NCBI GenBank assembly: GCA_963652285.1
Contig: CAVJSY010000055.1
Span: 1 to 10,082 of the forward strand
Length of the DNA stretch: 10,082 bases
Direction of reading: 5' to 3'
Origin: Oribacterium sp.
GTDB lineage: Bacteria > Bacillota_I > Bacilli_A > RF39 > UBA660
Shown: piece after piece, positions 1-10,082 of the stretch
Numbering within the stretch: position 1 is the first letter of the stretch
How the letters are laid out: each line of letters begins with the position of its first letter
Notes under the pieces: generated by a model
The model's database searches: none
What the model was told of the DNA's origin: nothing
Seen by the model: the letters and a program-made list of their open reading frames with translations, nothing else
Translations under genes and position numbers: made by a program

Positions 1-1171
1 CTTGAATGTTTTTTTTATATTTTTTATGTTCTTTTTCCGCTACTGACATTGCTTCTTCTACTGTTTCTATATTTAATCTTTTCCATTGACCGGCAATAGT
101 TTCTGCTAATGCTCTTGTTAATTTATTATTATTTGTTTTTAAGATATAATCTATTAGTACGTTTACTACTCCTGGTTTTAATTTATATTCTACTACTAAA
201 TCTTCTGCTAATTTAATATCTCTATTTGTAGGTTCTGCTCCATTATTTTTGCTTTTTAATAAGTCATAGGGACTTATTGTTTCAAATGTATATATCATTT
301 TAGCTCTTTTTGAGGTATCTCCTATAGGTGATTTTAAATACTCTGGTTGAGAGTTATAAACGACTGTTGGCAATACTCCTTTATTATCAAATTGATAATA
401 GTTTCTACAGGTCTTTCTAAATTCTTCTTTGTTTAATGTGCCTCTTTCTGTGATACAAGTTTTAATTATATCTTGTATCTTTAATGTATCTAAATCATAT
501 AAAAATGATAGTTCTAATATTAATTCTTTTGTTTCTTTAGTTAATAGTTTATCTTTATCAATCTTCTTTGGTAATGATTCTATTAGAAAGTTAAAGTCAA
601 AATTAGTATTAATATTTAGTTTTAATTTATTATATTTCCTTATGTTATCATTTACTATTTCATATGATGTTAATGGTACTGGGGTAAATACTTCTGAGAA
701 TGATGAGGTTATATCTGTATAGCCTGTAGTATTAATTCTTGGAAGTTTAAAATAACTTTTTAATTTTTCATATTCTTTTTTTCCAACATTATTATATAAT
801 ACTATGTTTAATATTGGGTGAGAAAAAAATTCATGGGCTGGTATGGGAGAATATAATTCATATAAGTAATTATTAATATTATCATTTTTATAAAATGTTT
901 TTAAAAGACCTATTGCTTCTAATTTTTTTCTTGCTTCTACAAATTCATCTAAGGACAAATGTAGGTTAGTTGTTAGATGATGGTGTGTATATTCTATACT
1001 TAGTATTTCATTTTTATCTAAGTCTGACCATAATGAATAATATAACATAATTGGTATTGGGCCTATGATTGGTAAGTATAACATATTTAGGATTTTTCTA
1101 TCTTCTGCGTTCATTATGCTTTTATTTACCACTACATAGGTATCTGCTGGAAGAATATTATATTTTTGCAT
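1..1171 (-). CDS. DnaD/DnaB_2-domain replication initiation / helicase-loading protein (Bacillus DnaB-like); 3' end runs off the window; absent from the supplied ORF track
   Basis: I reverse-complemented 1171-2 by hand and found 390 codons with no stop, which is very unlikely by chance at this AT content. The ATG at 1171-1169 is preceded by AAGAGGA about 10 nt upstream. The N-terminus reads MQKYNILPADTYVVVNKSIMNAEDRKILNMLYLPIIGPIPIMLYYSLWSD, typical of Firmicute DnaB/DnaD loaders. The distal part reads GVVNVLIDYILKTNNNKLTRALAETIAGQWKRLNIETVEEAM, matching the DnaB_2/DnaD C-terminal repeat (YI...L...Y...IA..W....I.T.E.A). The plus-strand ORF 429-722 is its antisense shadow. Confidence 0.75.
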   Translation of the reverse strand, partial: MQKYNILPADTYVVVNKSIMNAEDRKILNMLYLPIIGPIPIMLYYSLWSDLDKNEILSIEYTHHHLTTNLHLSLDEFVEARKKLEAIGLLKTFYKNDNINNYLYELYSPIPAHEFFSHPILNIVLYNNVGKKEYEKLKSYFKLPRINTTGYTDITSSFSEVFTPVPLTSYEIVNDNIRKYNKLKLNINTNFDFNFLIESLPKKIDKDKLLTKETKELILELSFLYDLDTLKIQDIIKTCITERGTLNKEEFRKTCRNYYQFDNKGVLPTVVYNSQPEYLKSPIGDTSKRAKMIYTFETISPYDLLKSKNNGAEPTNRDIKLAEDLVVEYKLKPGVVNVLIDYILKTNNNKLTRALAETIAGQWKRLNIETVEEAMSVAEKEHKKYKKNIQ

Positions 1172-1321
1172 TACAACCACTGTCCTCTTAATAACATTTT
1201 AATATAAAAGGGGTAAAAAGTAAAGAATTTATTTAGTTTTTGGAGTACAATACATAACTAATTAATTGATATTATCTAATAGAAAAAAACTTATATAATA
1301 TAGTTAATTTATATAAATATT

Positions 1322-1380
1322 AAAATAATTAAACATAATGTACCATACAATTTAAAATCGTGTGGTACATTATGTTTGAG
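1322..1380 (-). terminator. Putative intrinsic terminator closing the four-gene ATPase/vWA operon
   Basis: Perfect 15-bp inverted repeat: AAACATAATGTACCA (1331-1345) and TGGTACATTATGTTT (1363-1377). It extends to 18 bp with one mismatch. It begins 37 nt past the stop codon at 1414-1416. On the minus transcript it is followed by the U-rich tract AAUUAUUUUAAUAUUU. The stem is AT-rich and the U tract is interrupted, so confidence is moderate. Confidence 0.55.
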
Positions 1381-1413
1381 ATATAAAGAAATATGAACTT
1401 TTGTCCTGATTAT

Positions 1414-2688
1414 TTATCTTGTTTTTTCTTTTGATTTATTGGAAGTAGCTAATCTTTTTAAGTCTTCGTCACTTATATATATTACTCTTCCTCCTAATGG
1501 ATTTATTTTTCTTCCTCCAAATACTATCCAAATGGCATCAACTTTCTTTTGAGGCATTGATGCCCAGCCATCTGTGAATATTATTTTATTGTTGGCATTT
1601 TTTGAGAAGGCATTTATTGCTGCATCAAAGTCTGTTCCTCCTCCTCCTTGAAATTTTAAGTTTTCAATATCTTTAGATGACTTTACTTCACTGAAACCAT
1701 AGAATTTTGTATCAAAGCATCCTACTTTAACTTTTGACTCTTTTAATATATTTTTACATTCTCTAAGGAAATTTCTAAGTAAATCATCATCAATGGATCC
1801 ACTTGTATCTAATACTATTTCTGTTTCATTTTTTTCTATTGGGTCTATTGTAGGCATAATTATTCCACTTTCTACTTCCGGATTAAGATATGACCAATCT
1901 TCATCTGTTTTAATTGCATTTTTTAATAATCTAGTCCAATTTATTAATGGTATTGCACTTCCTATATCACTTATGTTTCTTTGGTCTGCTAAAGAACTAT
2001 TACCATAACTAGTTGATTGCTGAGCCAGAGACTTTCTAAGTTTCTCTAATTGTTCATCTCTTAACTTTTCATTTTCTTCAAAGATTTTCTTTTCTCCTAT
2101 TTTTCCCATTTTTTCTATATCTTGTTCTATTTTTTGTTCTTTTGGGGTAGAATGATTTTCTTTATTTTCCTCTTGCTTATGTTTCTTTTTTACTGCATCT
2201 TCCCACATAGTATGACTATCATGTCCAACTTGTTTATCATCATTTGAATTATTATTATCTTTTGATTTTTTGTTTTCATTCTCATTATCTTTTTTATCTT
2301 TTAATAGTTTTTCATACAATTGTTCAGCATCATACATATAAGCATCTTTTATGTCTACTCCACCTTCTATTAATGGTAAGCCATCTTTTTGAGTTAAATA
2401 TGAATTAATTACAGCATCTGTTGCTATATTCCAAGTTTCATGATCTTTTCCTTTACTTCTATAAATGTGATTAAGTGCTATATGGCATAATTCATGGGCA
2501 AATAAAAATATTTGTTCTTTTTCTGTTAGAGAATTTGTAAATTCAGAATTGTAATATATATTTTTTCCATCAGTTGCAGCAGTGTCAACTGTTTTTGTCT
2601 CTTCAAAAGTTGTGTTTGCTAGTATGTTGCCAAAGAAGCCATATTTGATTAGTAATTTTCTTTTTATACTATTAATATTTAATTCCAT
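1414..2688 (-). CDS. Zincin-like metallopeptidase (DUF2201_N-type) fused to a vWA-like MIDAS domain (DUF2201-type), joined by a long charged low-complexity linker
   Basis: 424-aa ORF with GAGGT 7 nt upstream of the ATG at 2688. The N-terminal domain carries TAATDGKNIYYN and HELCHIALNH (HExxHxxxxH, nt 2467-2496), then WNIATDAVIN. The C-terminal domain carries IVLDTSGSID (MIDAS DxSGS, nt 1795-1809), QGGGGTDF and IIFTDG. These motifs match the putative-metallopeptidase plus vWA-like family that is usually found next to AAA_5 ATPases, assigned from memory rather than a search. Confidence 0.88.
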   Translation of the reverse strand: MELNINSIKRKLLIKYGFFGNILANTTFEETKTVDTAATDGKNIYYNSEFTNSLTEKEQIFLFAHELCHIALNHIYRSKGKDHETWNIATDAVINSYLTQKDGLPLIEGGVDIKDAYMYDAEQLYEKLLKDKKDNENENKKSKDNNNSNDDKQVGHDSHTMWEDAVKKKHKQEENKENHSTPKEQKIEQDIEKMGKIGEKKIFEENEKLRDEQLEKLRKSLAQQSTSYGNSSLADQRNISDIGSAIPLINWTRLLKNAIKTDEDWSYLNPEVESGIIMPTIDPIEKNETEIVLDTSGSIDDDLLRNFLRECKNILKESKVKVGCFDTKFYGFSEVKSSKDIENLKFQGGGGTDFDAAINAFSKNANNKIIFTDGWASMPQKKVDAIWIVFGGRKINPLGGRVIYISDEDLKRLATSNKSKEKTR

Positions 2689-2697
2689 AGTTTACCT

Positions 2698-3093
2698 CTA
2701 CATTGTTATAACTAGTGATTTAATAGTATCATTAATTTCTTCCAATTTTCCATTTACTAGTATTATACAATTTTTAGGTAGTTCAAGATTACCAATTTTT
2801 CTATACTTTAATATTTCATAAAATTTTTCTTGTTCTTCTTTAGATATTTTTGATAAATCTGTTATTATCAATATAGTACTTTCTTTGTTACATTTTTTTA
2901 CTAATTCATTATACCAATTTGGTGGTAATAATTTACCTTCATTTAATGTTCCATTTAAAGAAGATTTTTTTATATTTGCAGGTAATATAACTGCATCTTT
3001 TTTTATAAAATTAACATCAACGTCACTTACTAATATTGGGGCTACATTTGCCTTTAAATATGCTCTTAATTCATTTATTCTTTCTTTATTCAT
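2698..3093 (-). CDS. Small (131 aa) degenerate AAA+ core paralogue lacking Walker A and the Walker B glutamate (putative pseudo-ATPase subunit or adaptor)
   Basis: Its ATG (3093-3091) overlaps the upstream stop as TAATG, and the SD AAGGAGGA lies inside the upstream gene tail. By eye it aligns to the neighbouring ATPases. PPNWYNELVKKCNKESTILIITDLSKISKEEQEKFYEILKYRKIGNLELPKNCIILVNG matches PPPWYTRLVEKCEKEPNKIHILFLDELNNASPNMQKYAFSIALDRKVNDRFELPKNVRIAAAGN. ANVAPILVSDVDVN sits where SNVAVFLHGKPGEGKS is found in the ATPases. Confidence 0.75.
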   Translation of the reverse strand: MNKERINELRAYLKANVAPILVSDVDVNFIKKDAVILPANIKKSSLNGTLNEGKLLPPNWYNELVKKCNKESTILIITDLSKISKEEQEKFYEILKYRKIGNLELPKNCIILVNGKLEEINDTIKSLVITM

Positions 3094-4310
3094 TATCTTT
3101 TTCCTCCTTTTTTTACATTTGATGTCATTTGTAATTCTGCTACTTTTTCTAATCTTTCTTTATCTCCGTGAGCCCAGATACTATAAAATGTATTTACAAA
3201 TTCTGGACCAAGATTTTCTATAAAGTCTTTTATAATTTCTACGTGTTCTTCACTTACTTGTGATAAACTTACTACCGTTGCATAACTTTCTGATACATTT
3301 AAATTTTTATAATCATTCATATCATAATCACCATTTATTACTTCTTCTACAGTTATTACTGGTTGCATACAGAAACTTATAAATTCTTGTGTTAGGTCTT
3401 CTCCTATTAAACCTCTTAGCATTTGAGGATTTTTAGTACTATATAACATTTTAGATGCCATTTCCCATTTTCTTGGGTCTGCTGTTGGTGTTTGTTTATC
3501 TGGATTTACTTCTGTTCTTAATACTCTTTCTCCACCGTAAGCAATAAATGCATATATAGATGGATGGATATTATTTAATGATGCCCAATTTAACCATTGT
3601 TCTGGTGTTGTTTTTATATTGACATGAGCAAATCTATCATATAATGGTTGAGATATATCATATGCTGATAACGAGTCTTCTACTTCATTTCCAGCGGCTG
3701 CAATTCTTACATTTTTTGGCAATTCAAATCTATCATTAACTTTTCTATCTAGTGCAATACTAAATGCATACTTTTGCATATTTGGACTTGCATTATTTAA
3801 TTCATCTAAGAATAGAATATGAATTTTATTTGGTTCTTTTTCACATTTTTCTACTAATCTAGTATACCATGGAGGAGGTGCATATTCTACTACTTTGGTA
3901 TCATTATTTTTAATTCCCATTCCTACTAAAAGTTCTGGTGTTAATGTGCCTAAAGATAACACTTCACAGTTAGGATCTATTTGTTTAATTCTAGATGATT
4001 TCCCTTCACCAGGTTTACCATGTAAGAATACTGCTACATTAGAGTCAATTGCTCCTTTTATTATATCTTCTTCACTTACTTCTTCAAATGTAAATCCATA
4101 TTGATTTTCTTTTGGTTTGATTTTTGTTAATGTTACTTCTTGAAATATTTCTTTTGCAAATACATTATCTATAAATTTTTTTATAGTTGTATTATCAAAG
4201 TCACCTATATATATTCCAGACTTTTCAAATGGAATGCCTGCGAAAAGAATTTTTTCTGTTACCATAACCTTATTCTTTTCATCAACTAACCATTTTATTG
4301 GTTGTACTCC
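3093..4310. repeat. Direct tandem repeat, copy B (pairs with 4852-6069, offset exactly 1759 bp)
   Basis: Line-by-line comparison shows an indel-free alignment across codons 181-585 of the two ATPase genes. Positions 3219-3821 show no mismatches against 4978-5580. The 126 nt on the 3' side have about 10 differences. Divergence rises steadily on the 5' side. Confidence 0.9.
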
Positions 4311-4850
4311 CATCCAAACAACATTATCCTGAATATTATTGGGATATCTTATGTATCTATGTCCATCTAATTCATATTCTGAATATTGTATTGTATTATC
4401 AGATGGATCTGTATATTTATTGCCTGTCAATTTTAATTTATTTTTTTTATAATATGAATCTACTATCATTTGCTCATCATCATCTAGATAATCTTGTGGA
4501 TAGTAACCGTACTCCACTTCTATAAATCCAGATTCATTAATTTTTTTCCTGTTATTTTCATAAATATCTGATATTGAGGAAAGCGGTAAAACTAAACGAG
4601 CACCTGTATCATCAAAACTAGGAATAGTAGCAGCTTGTAAACCTGCAAAATCAACTATATATACTCCTCTTCTATAACCTCTTGATTTTGTCCAATATGC
4701 TTTATGTAATTCATTGTTCCAATCACTAAATATATCAAATAAGTTAGCAAAATCTGTCATTTTTGCTGTAACATTAGTATCATCTTTAAATATTTCTAAT
4801 CTATTTTCTCCAAAAATTTGTTCTTTTGTTAAAAATGTAAAATCACTCAT
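3093..4850 (-). CDS. AAA+ ATPase (MoxR/AAA_5-like) with a ~250-aa N-terminal non-ATPase domain; downstream tandem paralogue (copy B)
   Basis: 585-aa ORF. The ATG at 4850 lies 1 nt after the copy A stop, with the SD AAGGAGGA embedded in the copy A tail. Walker A is GKPGEGKS (nt 3996-4019). Walker B is ILFLDE (nt 3801-3818). A sensor-1-like RIAAAGNE follows, then a helical lid region. The N-terminal domain carries YWTKS, GARLVLP, VEYGYYPQ and VQPIKWLV motifs. Confidence 0.9.
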   Translation of the reverse strand: MSDFTFLTKEQIFGENRLEIFKDDTNVTAKMTDFANLFDIFSDWNNELHKAYWTKSRGYRRGVYIVDFAGLQAATIPSFDDTGARLVLPLSSISDIYENNRKKINESGFIEVEYGYYPQDYLDDDEQMIVDSYYKKNKLKLTGNKYTDPSDNTIQYSEYELDGHRYIRYPNNIQDNVVWMGVQPIKWLVDEKNKVMVTEKILFAGIPFEKSGIYIGDFDNTTIKKFIDNVFAKEIFQEVTLTKIKPKENQYGFTFEEVSEEDIIKGAIDSNVAVFLHGKPGEGKSSRIKQIDPNCEVLSLGTLTPELLVGMGIKNNDTKVVEYAPPPWYTRLVEKCEKEPNKIHILFLDELNNASPNMQKYAFSIALDRKVNDRFELPKNVRIAAAGNEVEDSLSAYDISQPLYDRFAHVNIKTTPEQWLNWASLNNIHPSIYAFIAYGGERVLRTEVNPDKQTPTADPRKWEMASKMLYSTKNPQMLRGLIGEDLTQEFISFCMQPVITVEEVINGDYDMNDYKNLNVSESYATVVSLSQVSEEHVEIIKDFIENLGPEFVNTFYSIWAHGDKERLEKVAELQMTSNVKKGGKR

Positions 4851-4851
4851 A

Positions 4852-6069
4852 TTATCTTTTTCCTCCTTTTTTTATACTTGATGTCATTTGTAATTCTGCT
4901 ACTTTTTCTAATCTATCTTTATTTCCATGAGCCCAGATACTATAAAATGTATTTACAAATTCTGGACCTAAATTAGATATAAAGTCTTTTATAATTTCTA
5001 CGTGTTCTTCACTTACTTGTGATAAACTTACTACCGTTGCATAACTTTCTGATACATTTAAATTTTTATAATCATTCATATCATAATCACCATTTATTAC
5101 TTCTTCTACAGTTATTACTGGTTGCATACAGAAACTTATAAATTCTTGTGTTAGGTCTTCTCCTATTAAACCTCTTAGCATTTGAGGATTTTTAGTACTA
5201 TATAACATTTTAGATGCCATTTCCCATTTTCTTGGGTCTGCTGTTGGTGTTTGTTTATCTGGATTTACTTCTGTTCTTAATACTCTTTCTCCACCGTAAG
5301 CAATAAATGCATATATAGATGGATGGATATTATTTAATGATGCCCAATTTAACCATTGTTCTGGTGTTGTTTTTATATTGACATGAGCAAATCTATCATA
5401 TAATGGTTGAGATATATCATATGCTGATAACGAGTCTTCTACTTCATTTCCAGCGGCTGCAATTCTTACATTTTTTGGCAATTCAAATCTATCATTAACT
5501 TTTCTATCTAGTGCAATACTAAATGCATACTTTTGCATATTTGGACTTGCATTATTTAATTCATCTAAGAATAGAATATGTATTTTATCTGGTTCTTTTT
5601 CACATTTTTCTACTAGTCTAGTATACCATGGAGGTGGTGCATATTCTACTACTTTTGTATCATTATTTTTAATTCCCATTCCTACTAAAAGTTCTGGGGT
5701 TAATGTACCTAAAGATAATATTTCACAGTTAGGGTCTATTTGTTTAATTCTAGATGACTTTCCTTCACCAGGTTTACCATGTAAGAATACTGGTACATTA
5801 GAATCAATTGCACCTTTTATTATATCTTCTTCACTTACTTCATCAAATGTAAATCCATATTGATTTTCTTTTGGTTTGATTTTTGTTAATGTTACTCCTT
5901 GAAGTATTTCTTTTGCAAATATATTATCTATAAATTTTTTTATTGTTGTATTCTCAAAGTCACCTTCATATACTCCTGACTCTTCGAATGGGACACCTGA
6001 GAATTGTATTTTTTTTGTTACCATAATTTTATTTTTTTCATCGACTAACCATTTTATTGGTTGTACTTC
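4852..6069. repeat. Direct tandem repeat, copy A (pairs with 3093-4310)
   Basis: Same comparison as for copy B. The first ~105 nt of the two genes (6505-6609 versus 4746-4850) are also clearly similar. The poorly alignable segment (6070-6504 versus 4311-4745) lies between the two similar regions. Confidence 0.9.
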
Positions 6070-6609
6070 TATCCAATGATTTCTATCCACTCTTATGTAT
6101 CTATGTCCATTCAACTCATATTCTGGATAAAGTATTTTATTATTAACTGGGTCTGTATATTTATTTCCCGTTTCTCTTAATTTGTTTTTATGATATTCAC
6201 TATCTAATATCATACATAAATTTCTTGATATTGATTTTTGTGGATAGTAACCATATTCTACTTCTAGAAAATCATTCCATGTTTTATTTATTACAAATTT
6301 ATCATTAATAGGAATATTCAATAAGGATAAAAAAGGTATCACTAAACGAGCGCCAATTACTTCTGATTTAAAATATACATTACCATCTTGTCCAAATTCA
6401 TTAACAGCAATCCCCATATCTGGTATATTATATATTGATTTTGTCCAATAGTAACCATTTGATTGATTAAGTGAATCTATCGAATATAATACATCATTTT
6501 CCTGTGCAAAATCTGTTGCTTCTGCTTTAATGTTTTTATCATCTTTAAATATCTCTAATCTATTTTCTCCAAAAATTTGTTCTTCTGTTAAAAATGTAAA
6601 ATCACTCAC
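4852..6609 (-). CDS. AAA+ ATPase (MoxR/AAA_5-like) with a divergent ~250-aa N-terminal domain; upstream tandem paralogue (copy A), first gene of the operon
   Basis: 585-aa ORF with a GTG start at 6609-6607 preceded by GGTGGAG. The start is supported because copy B begins at the homologous MSDFTFLT with an ATG. Walker A is GKPGEGKS (nt 5755-5778) and Walker B is ILFLDE. From residue 181 to 585 it is colinear with copy B with no indels and few substitutions. Confidence 0.9.
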   Translation of the reverse strand: MSDFTFLTEEQIFGENRLEIFKDDKNIKAEATDFAQENDVLYSIDSLNQSNGYYWTKSIYNIPDMGIAVNEFGQDGNVYFKSEVIGARLVIPFLSLLNIPINDKFVINKTWNDFLEVEYGYYPQKSISRNLCMILDSEYHKNKLRETGNKYTDPVNNKILYPEYELNGHRYIRVDRNHWIEVQPIKWLVDEKNKIMVTKKIQFSGVPFEESGVYEGDFENTTIKKFIDNIFAKEILQGVTLTKIKPKENQYGFTFDEVSEEDIIKGAIDSNVPVFLHGKPGEGKSSRIKQIDPNCEILSLGTLTPELLVGMGIKNNDTKVVEYAPPPWYTRLVEKCEKEPDKIHILFLDELNNASPNMQKYAFSIALDRKVNDRFELPKNVRIAAAGNEVEDSLSAYDISQPLYDRFAHVNIKTTPEQWLNWASLNNIHPSIYAFIAYGGERVLRTEVNPDKQTPTADPRKWEMASKMLYSTKNPQMLRGLIGEDLTQEFISFCMQPVITVEEVINGDYDMNDYKNLNVSESYATVVSLSQVSEEHVEIIKDFISNLGPEFVNTFYSIWAHGNKDRLEKVAELQMTSSIKKGGKR

Positions 6610-6713
6610 TTTATCTCCACCTATCTATAGTAATAATATCATATTTTCTTTATTAATTAAAGAGATTTAGAAAAATAAACTATTAAATAAATCCTTTTTT
6701 GTAAATTATATTT

Positions 6714-6741
6714 ATTATAATTATTCTTATATTTCTGTAAT
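6714..6741 (-). promoter_or_regulatory. Candidate sigma-A type promoter for the ATPase/vWA operon
   Basis: On the minus strand there is ATTACA (6741-6736), a 16-nt spacer, then a perfect TATAAT (6719-6714). A second perfect TATAAT sits at 6710-6705. In DNA this AT-rich, -10-like hexamers are common, so this is only a plausible placement within the 6610-6742 intergenic region. Confidence 0.3.
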
Positions 6742-6742
6742 A

Positions 6743-6769
6743 GAAAAAAAGACTAATTCTTTAGTCTTT
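6743..6769 (-). terminator. Rho-independent terminator after the SDR gene
   Basis: A 9-bp stem, AAAGACTAA (6748-6756) pairing with TTAGTCTTT (6761-6769), with a 4-nt loop. It starts immediately after the TAG stop at 6770-6772. On the minus transcript the 3' arm runs straight into UUUUUUUCU. Confidence 0.75.
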
Positions 6770-7549
6770 CTACACTAATGATGCTCCTCCATCTATAATT
6801 ATAAATTGTCCTTGTACATAACTAGAGGCATCTGATGATAAGTAAATAATTGTACCATTTACTTCTTCTTTATAGCCTGGTCTATTTGAAGGATTTAGTT
6901 TATTATATATATTTAAAAATTCATCTGATTTAAATAAAGTATTCTCTGTCATTTCTGTTTCAAATAGTCCTGGTCCTATTGCATTTACTGTTATTCCATA
7001 TTTAGCATAACTACATGCCATAGCTTTAGTTAAACCTAAAACTGCTGATTTAGAAGCATTATAAGAATGTCTTATAAATATATCTTCTTTATCCGCTATA
7101 ACAGCATTTACTGATGCTATATTTACTATTTTACCATAATGTTTTTCTTTCATATGTGGTACTATATATTTACTCATTAGATATATACCTTTTACATTAG
7201 TATTAAATGATTTATCCCATTCACTTTCTTCTAAGGTATCTACTCCACCTTTAATTGCTATTCCTGCATTATTTAGTAATATGTCTATATGACCAAATTT
7301 ATTTATTATTGTATTAACCGCTTCTTTTACTTCTTCTTCTTTTGTTATATCACATTTTATAGTTAGACAAGCTCTACCTATCTTTGTTATTTCTTGTTTT
7401 ACTTCTTCTAATTTTTCTAATCTTCTTGCTAGTAATACTACATCTGCTCCATAGTTTGCATAGGCAATCGCTGCTCTTTTGCCTAGTCCAGAACTAGCTC
7501 CTGTTACTACTGCTACTTTATCTTTTAAGTTAAATAAATTGTTATTCAT
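6770..7549 (-). CDS. Classical short-chain dehydrogenase/reductase (FabG / gluconate-5-dehydrogenase-like)
   Basis: 259-aa ORF carrying VTGASSGLG (TGxxxGxG), LNNAG, the catalytic YNASKSA (YxxxK) and PGLFET. The SD AAAGGAAG lies upstream of the ATG at 7549. The start overlaps the upstream stop by 8 nt (ATGAATAA). Confidence 0.9.
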   Translation of the reverse strand: MNNNLFNLKDKVAVVTGASSGLGKRAAIAYANYGADVVLLARRLEKLEEVKQEITKIGRACLTIKCDITKEEEVKEAVNTIINKFGHIDILLNNAGIAIKGGVDTLEESEWDKSFNTNVKGIYLMSKYIVPHMKEKHYGKIVNIASVNAVIADKEDIFIRHSYNASKSAVLGLTKAMACSYAKYGITVNAIGPGLFETEMTENTLFKSDEFLNIYNKLNPSNRPGYKEEVNGTIIYLSSDASSYVQGQFIIIDGGASLV

Positions 7550-8225
7550 AATTTAATCTTCCTTTCTTTAGTATTGTTATTGATATTAAAAGTGATATTA
7601 GTCCTAATAGTAGGATATAAATATTAAATTCTTTTAAGAATATTGACATTATATTTGCTGATATATGTATTAATATTGGAACTTTTATATTATTAGATTT
7701 TATATATGTTATATTTAAAATAATTCCTAGTATAAATGCATATATTATTTTTATTATATTTAGATGTATTACAGCAAAGATAATGGTTGCTACAATAAGT
7801 GATTTTAATTTACTATTAAATTTATTTAGATTATTAAATAATATATATCTAAATAATATTTCTTCTAATATTGGTCCTATAAAACCAGTAGATATTATGC
7901 TTATATATAATGGTATTGTTACTTTATTTGGTTTACTAAATAGAAATAATGTTGTATTAAATATAGTAGATAAAGATATACCTAATAATATTAAAGGATA
8001 ACATGATAAAGGGTTTATATGCTTATTTTTTATATTATATTTTTTTATTAGATATGTTATTATTAGAAGATTTATTATTGTTAATATTATACTTAATTCA
8101 TTAGAAATAAAAGATGTTAAATCTTTATTAGATACTAGATAATATATAGAAGATAAAAGTATTAGTATAATGTATTGTAATACATATACTATTAAAACTG
8201 GTTTTAATGATTTTAAATATTTCAC
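7542..8225 (-). CDS. CPBP family (CAAX protease / Abi-type) intramembrane glutamic endopeptidase
   Basis: 227-aa polytopic hydrophobic ORF with the three family motifs: EEILFR (EExxxR), FAVIHL (FxxxH) and HISAN (HxxxN). The start as tracked is GTG at 8225 with no convincing SD, so the start is less certain than the gene itself. Confidence 0.8.
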   Translation of the reverse strand: MKYLKSLKPVLIVYVLQYIILILLSSIYYLVSNKDLTSFISNELSIILTIINLLIITYLIKKYNIKNKHINPLSCYPLILLGISLSTIFNTTLFLFSKPNKVTIPLYISIISTGFIGPILEEILFRYILFNNLNKFNSKLKSLIVATIIFAVIHLNIIKIIYAFILGIILNITYIKSNNIKVPILIHISANIMSIFLKEFNIYILLLGLISLLISITILKKGRLNYE

Positions 8226-8242
8226 TTTTCATTAATAGGATA

Positions 8243-9157
8243 TTAATCTTCCCATAAGTTGTTTGGATATTCTCTATTTTCTATTAATGTATGTATTTTA
8301 TTTTCTAAGTCTTCCATATCTTCTTTGTATGTAAGTCCTGCCCAGACACTTTCTGATACAATATTTCTTAGTAACAAATTGCCATTTGCTATATTTTTCT
8401 TAACTGTATCTGGTAAAAATACTTCTTTATCTTTTAATACTTCCTTATCATTATGAATAAATTCTTTGAAGTCTATTTCTAACATATCCATAAAATTTTT
8501 TTGAAATCCAAATAAATTCATTGATACTGGATGTGTTAATTTCATATCAAATTCTTCTTTAGTGTTTAAATTAGTACAATGAGCAAGTGTTTCTTTAATT
8601 TCAATTGAACATTCTGTTATTCCTGTTACATATTTTTTATCTTCTGATAATTCTATTACTCCTCTTTTTACACTTCCAAAATTGCTACTAGTTTTGATAA
8701 ATGGATAAGATATCATTACACCTTCATGTATATTATCAGATTCTTTTAGATAGTTTGCAACTTTTTTATAAGCATCATATCCGTAGAAATCATCTGCATT
8801 TATTATTGCAAATGGTCCATTTACTAACTCTTTAGCACATAATATAGCATGTGCTGTACCAAGTGGTTTAGTTCTATCTTTTGGTACATTAGAATCAATT
8901 GGTAGATTATTTATTTCTTGATATGCATATTCTATTAATATTTTTCCATTTACTCTTTTTTCTATAGTATTTTTAAATATTTGTTCGTGTTCTTTTCTTA
9001 TTACAAATACTATTTTATTAAAACCTGCTCTTATTGCATCATAGATTGAGTAATCTATTATAAATTCTCCACTTGGGCCTATTTCAGTTATTTGTTTTGG
9101 TCCGCCAAATCTACTACCCATTCCTGCTGCCATTACTACTAATGTTAAATTTTTCAT
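8243..9157 (-). CDS. Sugar-phosphate nucleotidyltransferase-like protein (NTP_transferase fold), paralogue 2; start revised from the ORF track
   Basis: Carries the MAAGMGSRFGGPKQ glycine-rich NTP loop, KPLGTAHA and INADDFYG. The tracked ORF starts at 9205. However, AAGGAGGG lies 4 nt upstream of the internal ATG at 9157-9155. That start gives MKNLTLVVMAAG, matching MKDITLVVMAAG of the upstream paralogue and the same 304-aa length. It also removes the 38-nt overlap with the upstream gene. Confidence 0.85.
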   Translation of the reverse strand: MKNLTLVVMAAGMGSRFGGPKQITEIGPSGEFIIDYSIYDAIRAGFNKIVFVIRKEHEQIFKNTIEKRVNGKILIEYAYQEINNLPIDSNVPKDRTKPLGTAHAILCAKELVNGPFAIINADDFYGYDAYKKVANYLKESDNIHEGVMISYPFIKTSSNFGSVKRGVIELSEDKKYVTGITECSIEIKETLAHCTNLNTKEEFDMKLTHPVSMNLFGFQKNFMDMLEIDFKEFIHNDKEVLKDKEVFLPDTVKKNIANGNLLLRNIVSESVWAGLTYKEDMEDLENKIHTLIENREYPNNLWED

Positions 9158-9167
9158 TTTGCCCTCC

Positions 9168-10082
9168 TTATTTTTGCCATAAATTATCTGGATATTCTCC
9201 ATCACTAATTAATTTATTTATTGTTTCTTTTAATTTTGGTAAGTCTTCTTTATATGTTACTCCAGTCCATATTCCATTTGAAACTATATTTTTTAATTTT
9301 AATTTATTTGATTTTAAATATTTTTGGGCTGTTTCTGAAATAACTAATTCTCCTTTTAATAGTTTTTCTTCATCTTGATGGATAAATTCGTTAAAATCTT
9401 CTTCTAATAAATCTAAGAAATTTTCTTTAAAACAGAATAAATTCATTGATACTGGATGATCTAATGATATAGTAAAACTTGGGCTTCCATCTAATGGTTC
9501 ACAGTTTGCAATATTGCCATTAGTTGTTATTTTTGATTCTATTAATTCTTTAATGTAATTTCCATCTAATTCTATTACTGCTCTTTTTACGCTTCCAAAT
9601 TCACTTGCAGTAATACCATATGGATATGATATAACTGCTCCAGTATTTTCATCAGTTTCTTCTTGTAAAAACTTTACTGCTTTTTCGTAAGAGTCTCTTC
9701 CATAAAAGTCATCTGCATTTATTATTACAAATGGTCCATTAATTTTTTCTTTTGCACATAATATGGCATGATCTGTTCCCCATGGTTTTACTCTTTCTTT
9801 TGGTATTTTTACATCACTTGGAACATTTTCTAATTCTTGATATACATATTCTATTTTTATATTATTATCTTTATTAATTCTTTTATCTATAGTTTCTTTA
9901 AATACTTCTCTATGTTCTTTTTTTATAATAAATACTATTTTGTTAAATCCTGCTTTTATTGCATCATATATAGAATAGTCTATTATAAATTCTCCACTTG
10001 GGCCTACTGGTGTTATTTGTTTGGGGCCTCCAAATCTGCTACCCATTCCTGCTGCCATTACTACTAGTGTTATATCTTTCAT
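9168..10082 (-). CDS. Sugar-phosphate nucleotidyltransferase-like protein (NTP_transferase fold), paralogue 1
   Basis: 304-aa ORF whose ATG sits exactly at the window edge. Motifs are MAAGMGSRFGGPKQ, KPWGTDHA and INADDFYG. It is colinear with the downstream paralogue along its whole length. Substrate specificity cannot be read from the sequence. Confidence 0.85.
   Translation of the reverse strand: MKDITLVVMAAGMGSRFGGPKQITPVGPSGEFIIDYSIYDAIKAGFNKIVFIIKKEHREVFKETIDKRINKDNNIKIEYVYQELENVPSDVKIPKERVKPWGTDHAILCAKEKINGPFVIINADDFYGRDSYEKAVKFLQEETDENTGAVISYPYGITASEFGSVKRAVIELDGNYIKELIESKITTNGNIANCEPLDGSPSFTISLDHPVSMNLFCFKENFLDLLEEDFNEFIHQDEEKLLKGELVISETAQKYLKSNKLKLKNIVSNGIWTGVTYKEDLPKLKETINKLISDGEYPDNLWQK

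Follow-up and report, generated by a model that had tools for sequence, protein, structure and literature searches.

How do two tandem genes come to share a long stretch of perfectly identical DNA when the sequence on either side of it has diverged? This question is raised by two ATPase genes on the minus strand of contig CAVJSY010000055.1 (Oribacterium sp., assembly GCA_963652285.1), of which positions 1 to 10,082, the whole stretch analyzed, are referred to here as the window. The upstream gene, copy B (4852..6609), begins with GTG and carries the ribosome binding site GGTGGAG ahead of its start; the downstream gene, copy A (3093..4850), begins with ATG. Both encode 585 amino acids (aa), and the minus-strand open reading frames (ORFs) confirm the original observation that they are offset by exactly 1759 nucleotides (nt). 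The two proteins share one architecture, in which a variable N-terminal domain is followed by a MoxR-class AAA+ core and then by a helical C-terminal domain. Comparison with related strains supports repeated gene conversion, that is, concerted evolution of A and B, over the AAA+/C-terminal half.

The identity is confined to one block. Positions 3219..3821 of copy A (gene nt 1030-1632, codons 344-544) match 4978..5580 of copy B as a single perfect run of 603 nt, and the next run in the ungapped comparison is 54 nt long. This block had been read by eye as free of mismatches, and the computed alignment shows zero mismatches there rather than an even spread. In copy A the tract extends from Walker B (LFLDE, 3801-3815), which lies on its 5' edge, to the end of the AAA+ core and through most of the C-terminal helical domain; Walker B of copy B is at 5560-5574. 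Beyond the 3' border, the C-terminal tails of A (3093..3218) and B (4852..4977) differ at exactly 10 sites in 126 nt, where about 10 had been noted by eye, giving the replacements E/S, D/N, E/D and NV/SI.

The 5' side diverges progressively, as had been proposed. Nucleotide identity in bins of 30 codons is 93-97% at codons 241-360 and 84-87% at codons 181-240, and reaches its minimum of 44.8% at codons 61-90. It returns to 90% over the first 30 codons (4761..4850 in copy A, 6520-6609 in copy B), and these together with the ATPase half provide homology on both sides of the variable domain. The suggestion that compensating indels bring both proteins to 585 aa holds, but not as a single pair of +5 and -5 residues: there are several small ones (in B +2, +2, -1 and +2, then -5), and the protein alignment takes 591 columns for 585 residues. 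In the last 1038 nt the copies differ at 26 sites. When mismatches were placed at random 200,000 times, the longest run never exceeded 469 nt, and the analytic bound on the chance of a run of at least 603 nt is 4e-9. Synonymous divergence (dS) between A and B is 0 in the block as compared to 0.19-0.30 in the flanking ATPase codons 271-360.

Evidence for recombination comes from the comparison of four strains that have two copies in the same arrangement: the window, L001 (GCA_963641985.1; 99.0% identical to the window), L002 (GCA_963602645.1; 99.6%) and L081 (~95.5%). Block divergence between A and B is 0% within each genome, whereas it is 1.2-3.8% between genomes. At all 28 block sites that vary between strains, both copies of each genome carry the same base (28/28). 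The ends of the perfect tract vary: it measures 603 nt in the window and in L002. In L001 it spans gene nt 844-1632 (789 nt), and the 938-nt tract of L081 runs past the 3' border seen in the window. The differences between the A and B tails are fixed in the window, L001 and L002, and the tract of L081 covers the first six of them. L001 is a patchwork at gene nt 849-1029, with A-type alleles in B at 849-891 and 994, B-type alleles in A at 903-975 and 1021-1029, and novel alleles common to both copies.

The block is not intrinsically invariant, since its codons show a dS of 0.12-0.26 between strains (14-27 synonymous differences). In the N-terminal part, B-type copies are 0-1.1% apart across strains and ~31% from every downstream copy. 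Separate groupings of the two regions are therefore incongruent, the N-terminus grouping by orthology and the block by genome. Shared sites, varying tract ends, the L001 patchwork and the dS contrast are the features by which concerted evolution through repeated gene conversion is recognized, and the proposal of recent or ongoing conversion of the ATPase core is supported.

Mechanistically, repeated non-reciprocal homologous recombination of the RecA type would copy the core of one gene onto the other, and the route may be that repeats 1759 nt apart, whether on sister chromosomes or within one chromosome, pair unequally. Toward the 5' side conversion would fade as identity drops and indels appear, and on the 3' side it would end, in this strain, where 5 mismatches fall within 9 nt. 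The N-terminal domain would escape through low identity and indels, perhaps aided by selection for two specificities. Reciprocal exchange within the same tract would alter copy number.

Gene conversion between duplicated bacterial genes is well known, for example from tufA/tufB in Salmonella and from rRNA operons (PMC5485169, PMC6053082, PMC8022953), and in this sense the mechanism is ordinary. As in these cases, paralogues within a genome are closer than orthologues between strains, tracts of hundreds of nt have variable ends, and there are patchy mosaics as expected from heteroduplex repair. In contrast to them, the repeats in the window adjoin within one operon, conversion of half a gene preserves a variable domain beside a homogenized core, and the same tract changes copy number. 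What is new is an unusually clean case in which conversion is limited to one domain, is ongoing by strain comparison and is linked to copy-number change.

The expectation that a direct repeat of this size makes copy number unstable is supported as a polymorphism, as single-gene strains exist beside the two-copy strains. One such strain is identical over 11.4 kb compared in three fetched loci (three samples, two studies); its protein occurs on 8 contigs in all, and its ATPase gene lies between the same flanks as in the window. The gene has a B-type front, with 11 differences from window B in the first 720 nt, and downstream-copy type bases at the last four diagnostic tail sites. It could be the single chimeric product expected from unequal crossover in the shared tract, and it could also be the ancestral state. 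L079 likewise has one gene, with an upstream-type GTG start and a body ~90% identical to A; it changes from B-like to A-like between alignment columns 57 and 74. The downstream copy of L081 carries B-type alleles at alignment columns 74-93. Trouble in assembling the repeat had also been foreseen and was encountered: the L080 contig starts only within the tail of the upstream copy, as is commonly seen where an assembler halts at a repeat.

What, then, is the N-terminal domain that conversion spares? More than 2400 relatives of the ATPase were found, nearly all without a name. We assembled a family set of 77 loci, consisting of the window and 76 species-representative loci, mostly from metagenome-assembled genomes (MAGs) of gut 'Bacilli', 'Tenericutes' and 'Clostridia'. 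The species of the window is not among the GTDB representatives scanned, where the best match has 46% identity. The family module consists of one to four ATPase genes, a gene of ~131 aa and a gene for a metallopeptidase with a von Willebrand factor A (VWA) domain; the linkage to the VWA gene is conserved. Two or more ATPase genes are present in 20 of the 77 loci, the window included, and 25 of the 77 (about a third) have a gene for a reverse transcriptase (RT) immediately ahead of the ATPase gene.

In L083, a gene for a 338-aa RT precedes the ATPase gene, and a 103-nt repeat ties the DNA upstream of the RT gene (6583-6685) to ATPase codons 67-101 (8199-8301). Within the 100-nt core of this repeat, 7 of 8 mismatches fall at adenines of the upstream copy. 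Judged from the sequence, the adenine-biased pair is the signature of a diversity-generating retroelement (DGR), with the upstream copy as template repeat (TR) and the ATPase copy as variable region (VR). Clean TR/VR pairs with adenine-biased mismatches were found in at least 10 of the loci with RT, among them L057 (12/12 mismatches at template adenines), L061 (16/17), L042 (12/13), L039 (10/11), L066 (11/12), L048 (12/14) and L006 (14/17). Across RT-bearing family loci the DGR-mutated part of the ATPase is codons ~67-106, bounded by conserved WWTKS and GARPALP motifs. Literature on DUF2201, on AAA_5 with DGR and on midasin with DGR yielded no description of this module in Bacilli.

The VR aligns to residues 55-89 of copy A (4584..4688, minus strand; from KS of YWTKS through GARLVLP) and residues 57-92 of copy B (6334..6441, minus strand). 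This segment is the stretch of least A/B likeness, coinciding with the identity minimum at codons 61-90. The N-terminal domain of the downstream copy differs by 9-27% between strains whose flanks are ~95% identical, and most of the changes fall on the first two codon positions. For these alleles the ratio of non-synonymous to synonymous divergence (dN/dS) is 1.1-1.9 at codons 31-110, as compared to 0.02-0.13 in the ATPase part; it is raised, and its excess over 1 is without statistical support. Together with the N-terminal grouping by orthology, this agrees with the proposal that the N-terminal module is kept apart. As a separate observation, the B-type front shows a dS of only 0-0.08 between strains (window 4852-6609 against L081 4248-5999) and the ATPase codons of the same strains a dS of 0.18-0.21, which suggests a recent spread of the B-type front between strains by recombination.

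No RT ORF was detected by profile search in the window, L001, L002 or L079-L082. RT genes are likewise absent from the Pfam gene tables of L001, L002, L079-L081 and L085-L087, which cover the 8-22 kb fetched around these strains. In the window there is no template-like repeat of the VR-equivalent segment, the only second copy being the paralogue. A DGR local to the window was thus rejected.

Other species repeat the pattern seen in the window. In L009, L017, L021, L058 and L067, the N-termini of the paralogues are 43-78% identical and the ATPase halves 96-99%, with perfect runs of 421-976 nt. For L017, N-terminal identity is 0.45 within the genome as compared to 0.74 with another species, whereas C-terminal identity is 0.97 within and 0.91 outside. 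Similar discordance between N- and C-terminal parts is found in L009, L021, L008 and L073. Given discordance and perfect runs in several species, domain-restricted concerted evolution is a recurrent property of the family. Among loci with RT, only L031 (7974-17436) carries more than one ATPase gene. Two of its four copies are 100% identical over 1890 nt and lie 75 nt apart, reflecting either very recent amplification or an assembly artefact. In L031, L034 and L043 most differences between copies fall in the last ~40 codons, and the C-terminal tail may be a second variable module.

Could the pattern in the window have arisen without repeated conversion? Constraint at the nucleotide level, as from an embedded RNA or a binding array, might hold two copies identical, but the block codons vary freely at synonymous sites between strains; the normal between-strain dS rules this cause out, and we give it practically no weight. 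A different history would consist of one recent duplication and subsequent replacement of one N-terminal domain by a foreign allele, with no conversion going on. Allele replacement does occur, as shown by the divergent downstream-copy N-termini between well-conserved flanks, and the near identity of the B-type N-terminus across strains with a dS of ~0.2 elsewhere suggests recent spread. However, the B/A order and the tail differences are common to strains up to 3.8% apart in the block, and yet the blocks are identical in each genome. The variation of tract ends by strain also argues against a young duplication, and the discordance in other species is not explicable by one. A young duplication without conversion is therefore very unlikely, and we rejected it on the 28/28 shared sites. 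The N-terminal differences, for their part, might have been written by a DGR that has since been lost or acts in trans, and not by allelic divergence and selection. This would replace only the account of how the N-termini are kept apart and is compatible with conversion of the core. It is in line with the homologues being DGR targets at exactly the same segment, and with the comparison of window copy A to the L079 allele, where the backbone is identical but for changes in the segment that are nearly all non-synonymous and mainly affect the first two positions of a codon. Nevertheless, no RT was found in the DNA searched and no template-like repeat in the window, and the alleles differ also at synonymous sites, by indels and outside the segment, so that we regard such an origin as rather unlikely.

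An assembly artefact would act on the block itself. Copies truly ~1-2% apart there would have received one consensus when a short-read graph was simplified, and different assemblies choosing different haplotypes would mimic shared strain-specific changes. All sequences are apparently MAG or metagenome contigs, the read type behind them not being known, and merging of near-identical copies could mimic both the perfect identity and the shared polymorphisms. The window and L002 differ at 23 sites over 10 kb, of which 18 fall in the two blocks, 9 in each, a concentration that either recombinational import or assembler collapse would yield. The break of the L080 contig at the repeat and the tandem 1.9-kb copies of L031, which at 100% identity are hard to assemble honestly, point in the same direction. 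On the other hand, directly beside the block the same assemblies kept clusters of A/B differences as dense as the one supposed to have been collapsed: gene nt 903-1029 has 7 differing sites (127 nt) and gene nt 1633-1735 has 10 (103 nt), and the supposedly collapsed cluster at gene nt 1098-1206 has 7 (109 nt). Along L001, alleles change from window-like to L002-like or back over 16-21 nt, and from A-type to B-type or back over 19-27 nt, which cannot come from picking one of two real paths. Moreover, block divergence is greatest in the most distant strain, L081, and the pattern recurs over many species and pipelines, with tract lengths forming a continuum of 52-976 nt. An artefact thus appears quite unlikely. 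As a practical lesson, short-read MAGs tend to collapse or break loci of this type or to give a wrong copy number for them.

With regard to function, the N-terminal domain would serve as a ligand-recognition module, and two copies would give two specificities feeding one MoxR-type ATPase machine. The ATPase ring would act with a shared degenerate AAA fragment and the shared VWA-metallopeptidase, and an identical motor half would keep both variants fitting these partners, and perhaps each other. Recognition diversity would here come from paralogues and divergent strain alleles, not from the reverse transcriptase of sister loci. By analogy with described systems (PMC7159879, PMC10907252), a role of the module in conflict or sensing is plausible. 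The explanation that we favor as a whole, conversion of the core in an RT-free variant of a two-specificity sensor ATPase operon, has in our estimate a probability of about 0.8.

Several points weigh against this reading. Its functional part is inferred only. The N-terminal domain modeled alone gave a poor structure, with a predicted local distance difference test score (pLDDT) of 59.5 and residues 1-82 below 50, and its best match in the PDB has an E-value not below 0.045. The window proteins have no Pfam match to DUF6273, a family of C-type-lectin-like fold, and we claim no such fold for them; this family matches 5 of 27 relatives, at the site of the VR, and the three best-scoring matches cover only the last ~45 profile positions (E = 3.5e-6 to 7.5e-5). 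PADLOC-DB 2.0 has no match for any of the four operon proteins. The distribution of paralogue arrays, present in 19 of 52 loci without RT as compared to 1 of 25 with RT, is significant by Fisher's test (P = 0.002), but the statistics ignore phylogeny and truncated flanks. To these must be added the lack of statistical support for a dN/dS above 1 in the downstream alleles.

That arrays and RTs are almost mutually exclusive suggests alternative routes to varying a recognition site on a constant motor. We tentatively propose that the family may diversify by two interchangeable routes, a DGR acting on a single gene, or an RT-free paralogue array plus strain alleles with converted motor halves. The module would then be a cytoplasmic system for recognition and proteolysis, with phages or other invaders as plausible targets, and the window would hold its RT-free form; we consider this broader scheme possible rather than probable. 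The window itself shows a known mechanism in a new setting, where a sensor-ATPase module of a DGR-targeted kind is duplicated and lacks an RT. The setting is an uncharacterized, widespread operon of gut Bacilli whose variable segment is a DGR target in sister species. If the scheme is true, the family is a tractable system in which to ask what cytoplasmic DGR-diversified ATPases recognize.

Several known systems resemble the module in part. One class of DGR targets in the candidate phyla radiation (CPR) is reported to have midasin-like AAA matches (PMC5758913), and the window ATPase is likewise of AAA_5 or midasin-MoxR type, a likeness by description and not by family assignment. The Bacilli homologues of the window, with RT, template repeat and adenine-mutated N-terminal VR, resemble what is reported as the commonest architecture of DGR targets in CPR bacteria and DPANN archaea (cited in PMC10907252); unlike these, the window locus has no RT or template repeat. 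In vWA-MoxR 'ternary' conflict systems (Kaur et al. 2020, PMC7159879), to which DGR-diversified sensors are attached (PMC10907252), a MoxR-type ATPase, a vWA protein and a peptidase are also combined, and the relatives of the window share with them a DGR-diversified recognition domain. However, the window operon has no VMAP component (no Pfam match on the 131-aa product), its variable domain is on the ATPase and not on the vWA protein, and its peptidase is a zincin fused to vWA. Furthermore, the hosts of the window family are small-genome gut Bacilli, whereas the ternary systems occur in multicellular bacteria.

Jumbo phages of group 2.2 encode pairs of MoxR AAA+ and vWA proteins, the latter with an N-terminal metallopeptidase, for which a role in chaperoning assembly, coupled to proteolytic processing, has been predicted (PMC7824862). 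Both partner types in the window match phage families (phrog_1297 and phrog_1314), and the N-terminal HExxH is present. Relatives of the ATPase half are encoded in 710 phage records, none of which covers 80% of the query, and fold matches in BFVD include gp566 of Bacillus phage G. Unlike the window ATPases, the phage proteins have no N-terminal domain of ~255 residues, and the window has an additional AAA fragment and two ATPase copies. In NorQ-NorD and CbbQ-CbbO, a MoxR AAA+ protein with a VWA partner remodels or activates a client enzyme. The AAA+ core finds its best structural matches in NorQ and CbbQ, and the window also has an adjacent VWA partner. In contrast to these systems, sequence identity is ~12-15%, no client enzyme gene is nearby, the ATPases carry extra N-terminal and C-terminal helical domains, and the partner has a protease domain.

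The two ATPase genes belong to a four-gene minus-strand operon that continues with the ~131-aa degenerate AAA fragment and the VWA-metallopeptidase. In each ATPase an N-terminal region of ~255 residues precedes the AAA_5 core and the helical C-terminal domain. AAA_5 scores of 23.4 bits (A) and 24.1 bits (B) are above the Pfam cut-off of 22 but marginal; both copies have Walker A (GKPGEGKS) and Walker B (LFLDE). The AlphaFold2 model of copy A has a pLDDT of 79.5, and its best PDB matches by Foldseek, NorQ and CbbQ (MoxR AAA+), were found at E = 1e-6 to 2e-5 and probability 1.0, with low TM-scores for a query of three domains. Fold searches with the full-length model return the AAA+ part only. 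ATPase residues 259-574 match phrog_1297 ('ATPase') at 4e-56, and copy B matches it at 1e-55.

The genes are tightly joined. The stop of B and the start of A read TAA-T-ATG, and the stop of A overlaps the start of the 131-aa gene (TAATG). The tail of B holds the Shine-Dalgarno sequence AGGAGG for copy A (4862-4867), and the tail of A holds the same motif for the 131-aa gene (3103-3108), within the KKGGKR codons. The C-terminal KKGGKR residues (3096-3113 and 4855-4872) are encoded by AAAAAAGGAGGAAAAAGA, which contains the Shine-Dalgarno sequence of the next gene, the same bases encoding protein tail and translational coupling together. Since each ATPase gene carries the Shine-Dalgarno sequence for the gene that follows, the 1759-nt unit is self-contained.

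The 131-aa product (2698..3093, minus strand) has no P-loop and reads TDL, not DEL, at the Walker B position, and is therefore a degenerate AAA fragment; it aligns to copy A residues 325-401 with 35% identity (BLASTP, E = 5e-10). Most of the 77 family loci have its gene at this position, flanked by the ATPase and VWA genes, and the product has no match in Pfam, NCBIfam or PADLOC. The VWA-metallopeptidase (1414..2688, minus strand; 424 aa) has an N-terminal zincin-like domain with HELCH at 2482-2496 (residues 65-69) and a C-terminal VWA-like domain. It matches DUF2201_N (2.8e-30) and DUF2201 (1.5e-14) in Pfam and, over the whole protein, phrog_1314 (2e-68). Note that phrog_1314 is labeled 'HNH endonuclease', whereas Pfam sees a zincin-like peptidase and VWA and HExxH is present; the PHROG label looks wrong. 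NCBIfam has no match for any of the four proteins, and no signal peptide or hydrophobic N-terminus is obvious in any part, as judged by eye without a predictor.

The upstream boundary of the operon (6714..6769, minus strand) consists of a terminator-like hairpin and T-run at 6744-6769, after a short-chain dehydrogenase gene, followed by a promoter-like site at 6714-6741. The latter is a candidate promoter only, as the promoter scan returned 38 sites in this AT-rich DNA as compared to 42 expected from shuffles. At the other end, an inverted repeat at 1331..1377 (23-nt arms, 91% complementary), 37 nt past the stop of the last gene, is the probable operon end. The terminator scan called none and skipped this repeat for its AT-rich stem; the boundaries rest on reading the sequence and not on these scans.

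The locus is chromosomal, among housekeeping genes and not in a phage or prophage context. Neighbors in the window encode the dehydrogenase, an Rce1-like protease and nucleotidyl transferases; in related strains, DnaD/DnaI/DnaE-like genes lie beyond them. The module was also considered as part of a core housekeeping cluster; this was not supported, as the DnaD/DnaI/DnaE neighbors occur in this species only and the neighborhood is not conserved elsewhere, where the surrounding genes are unrelated. In L083 (1-17893), the DGR and ATPase module lies among genes for PrgI, a TraG/VirB4-like ATPase, CHAP, SSB, a PemK toxin and serine recombinases, and in at least this lineage the module appears to ride on a conjugative or integrative element. 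In L001 (6244-7974), a DDE_Tnp_1 transposase gene stands between the ATPase operon and the dehydrogenase gene, a strain-specific insertion sequence, and further upstream the Rce1-like gene is replaced by two short unannotated ORFs. In L079 (4623-7618), the place of the downstream DnaD/DnaI genes is taken by an unannotated ORF of 180 aa with an AbiEii toxin gene after it, and by a gene for an HTH_38 protein, another sign of locus edges in flux.

The window contains a second tandem pair of paralogues, nucleotidyl-transferase genes of ~304 aa at 8243-10082 on the minus strand (repeat families D2 and D3). Their nucleotide identity is 73-85%, with no long identical tract, and they are thus not being homogenized. 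The GTG start called at 9205 probably makes its gene too long, since the call in related strains is 304 aa.

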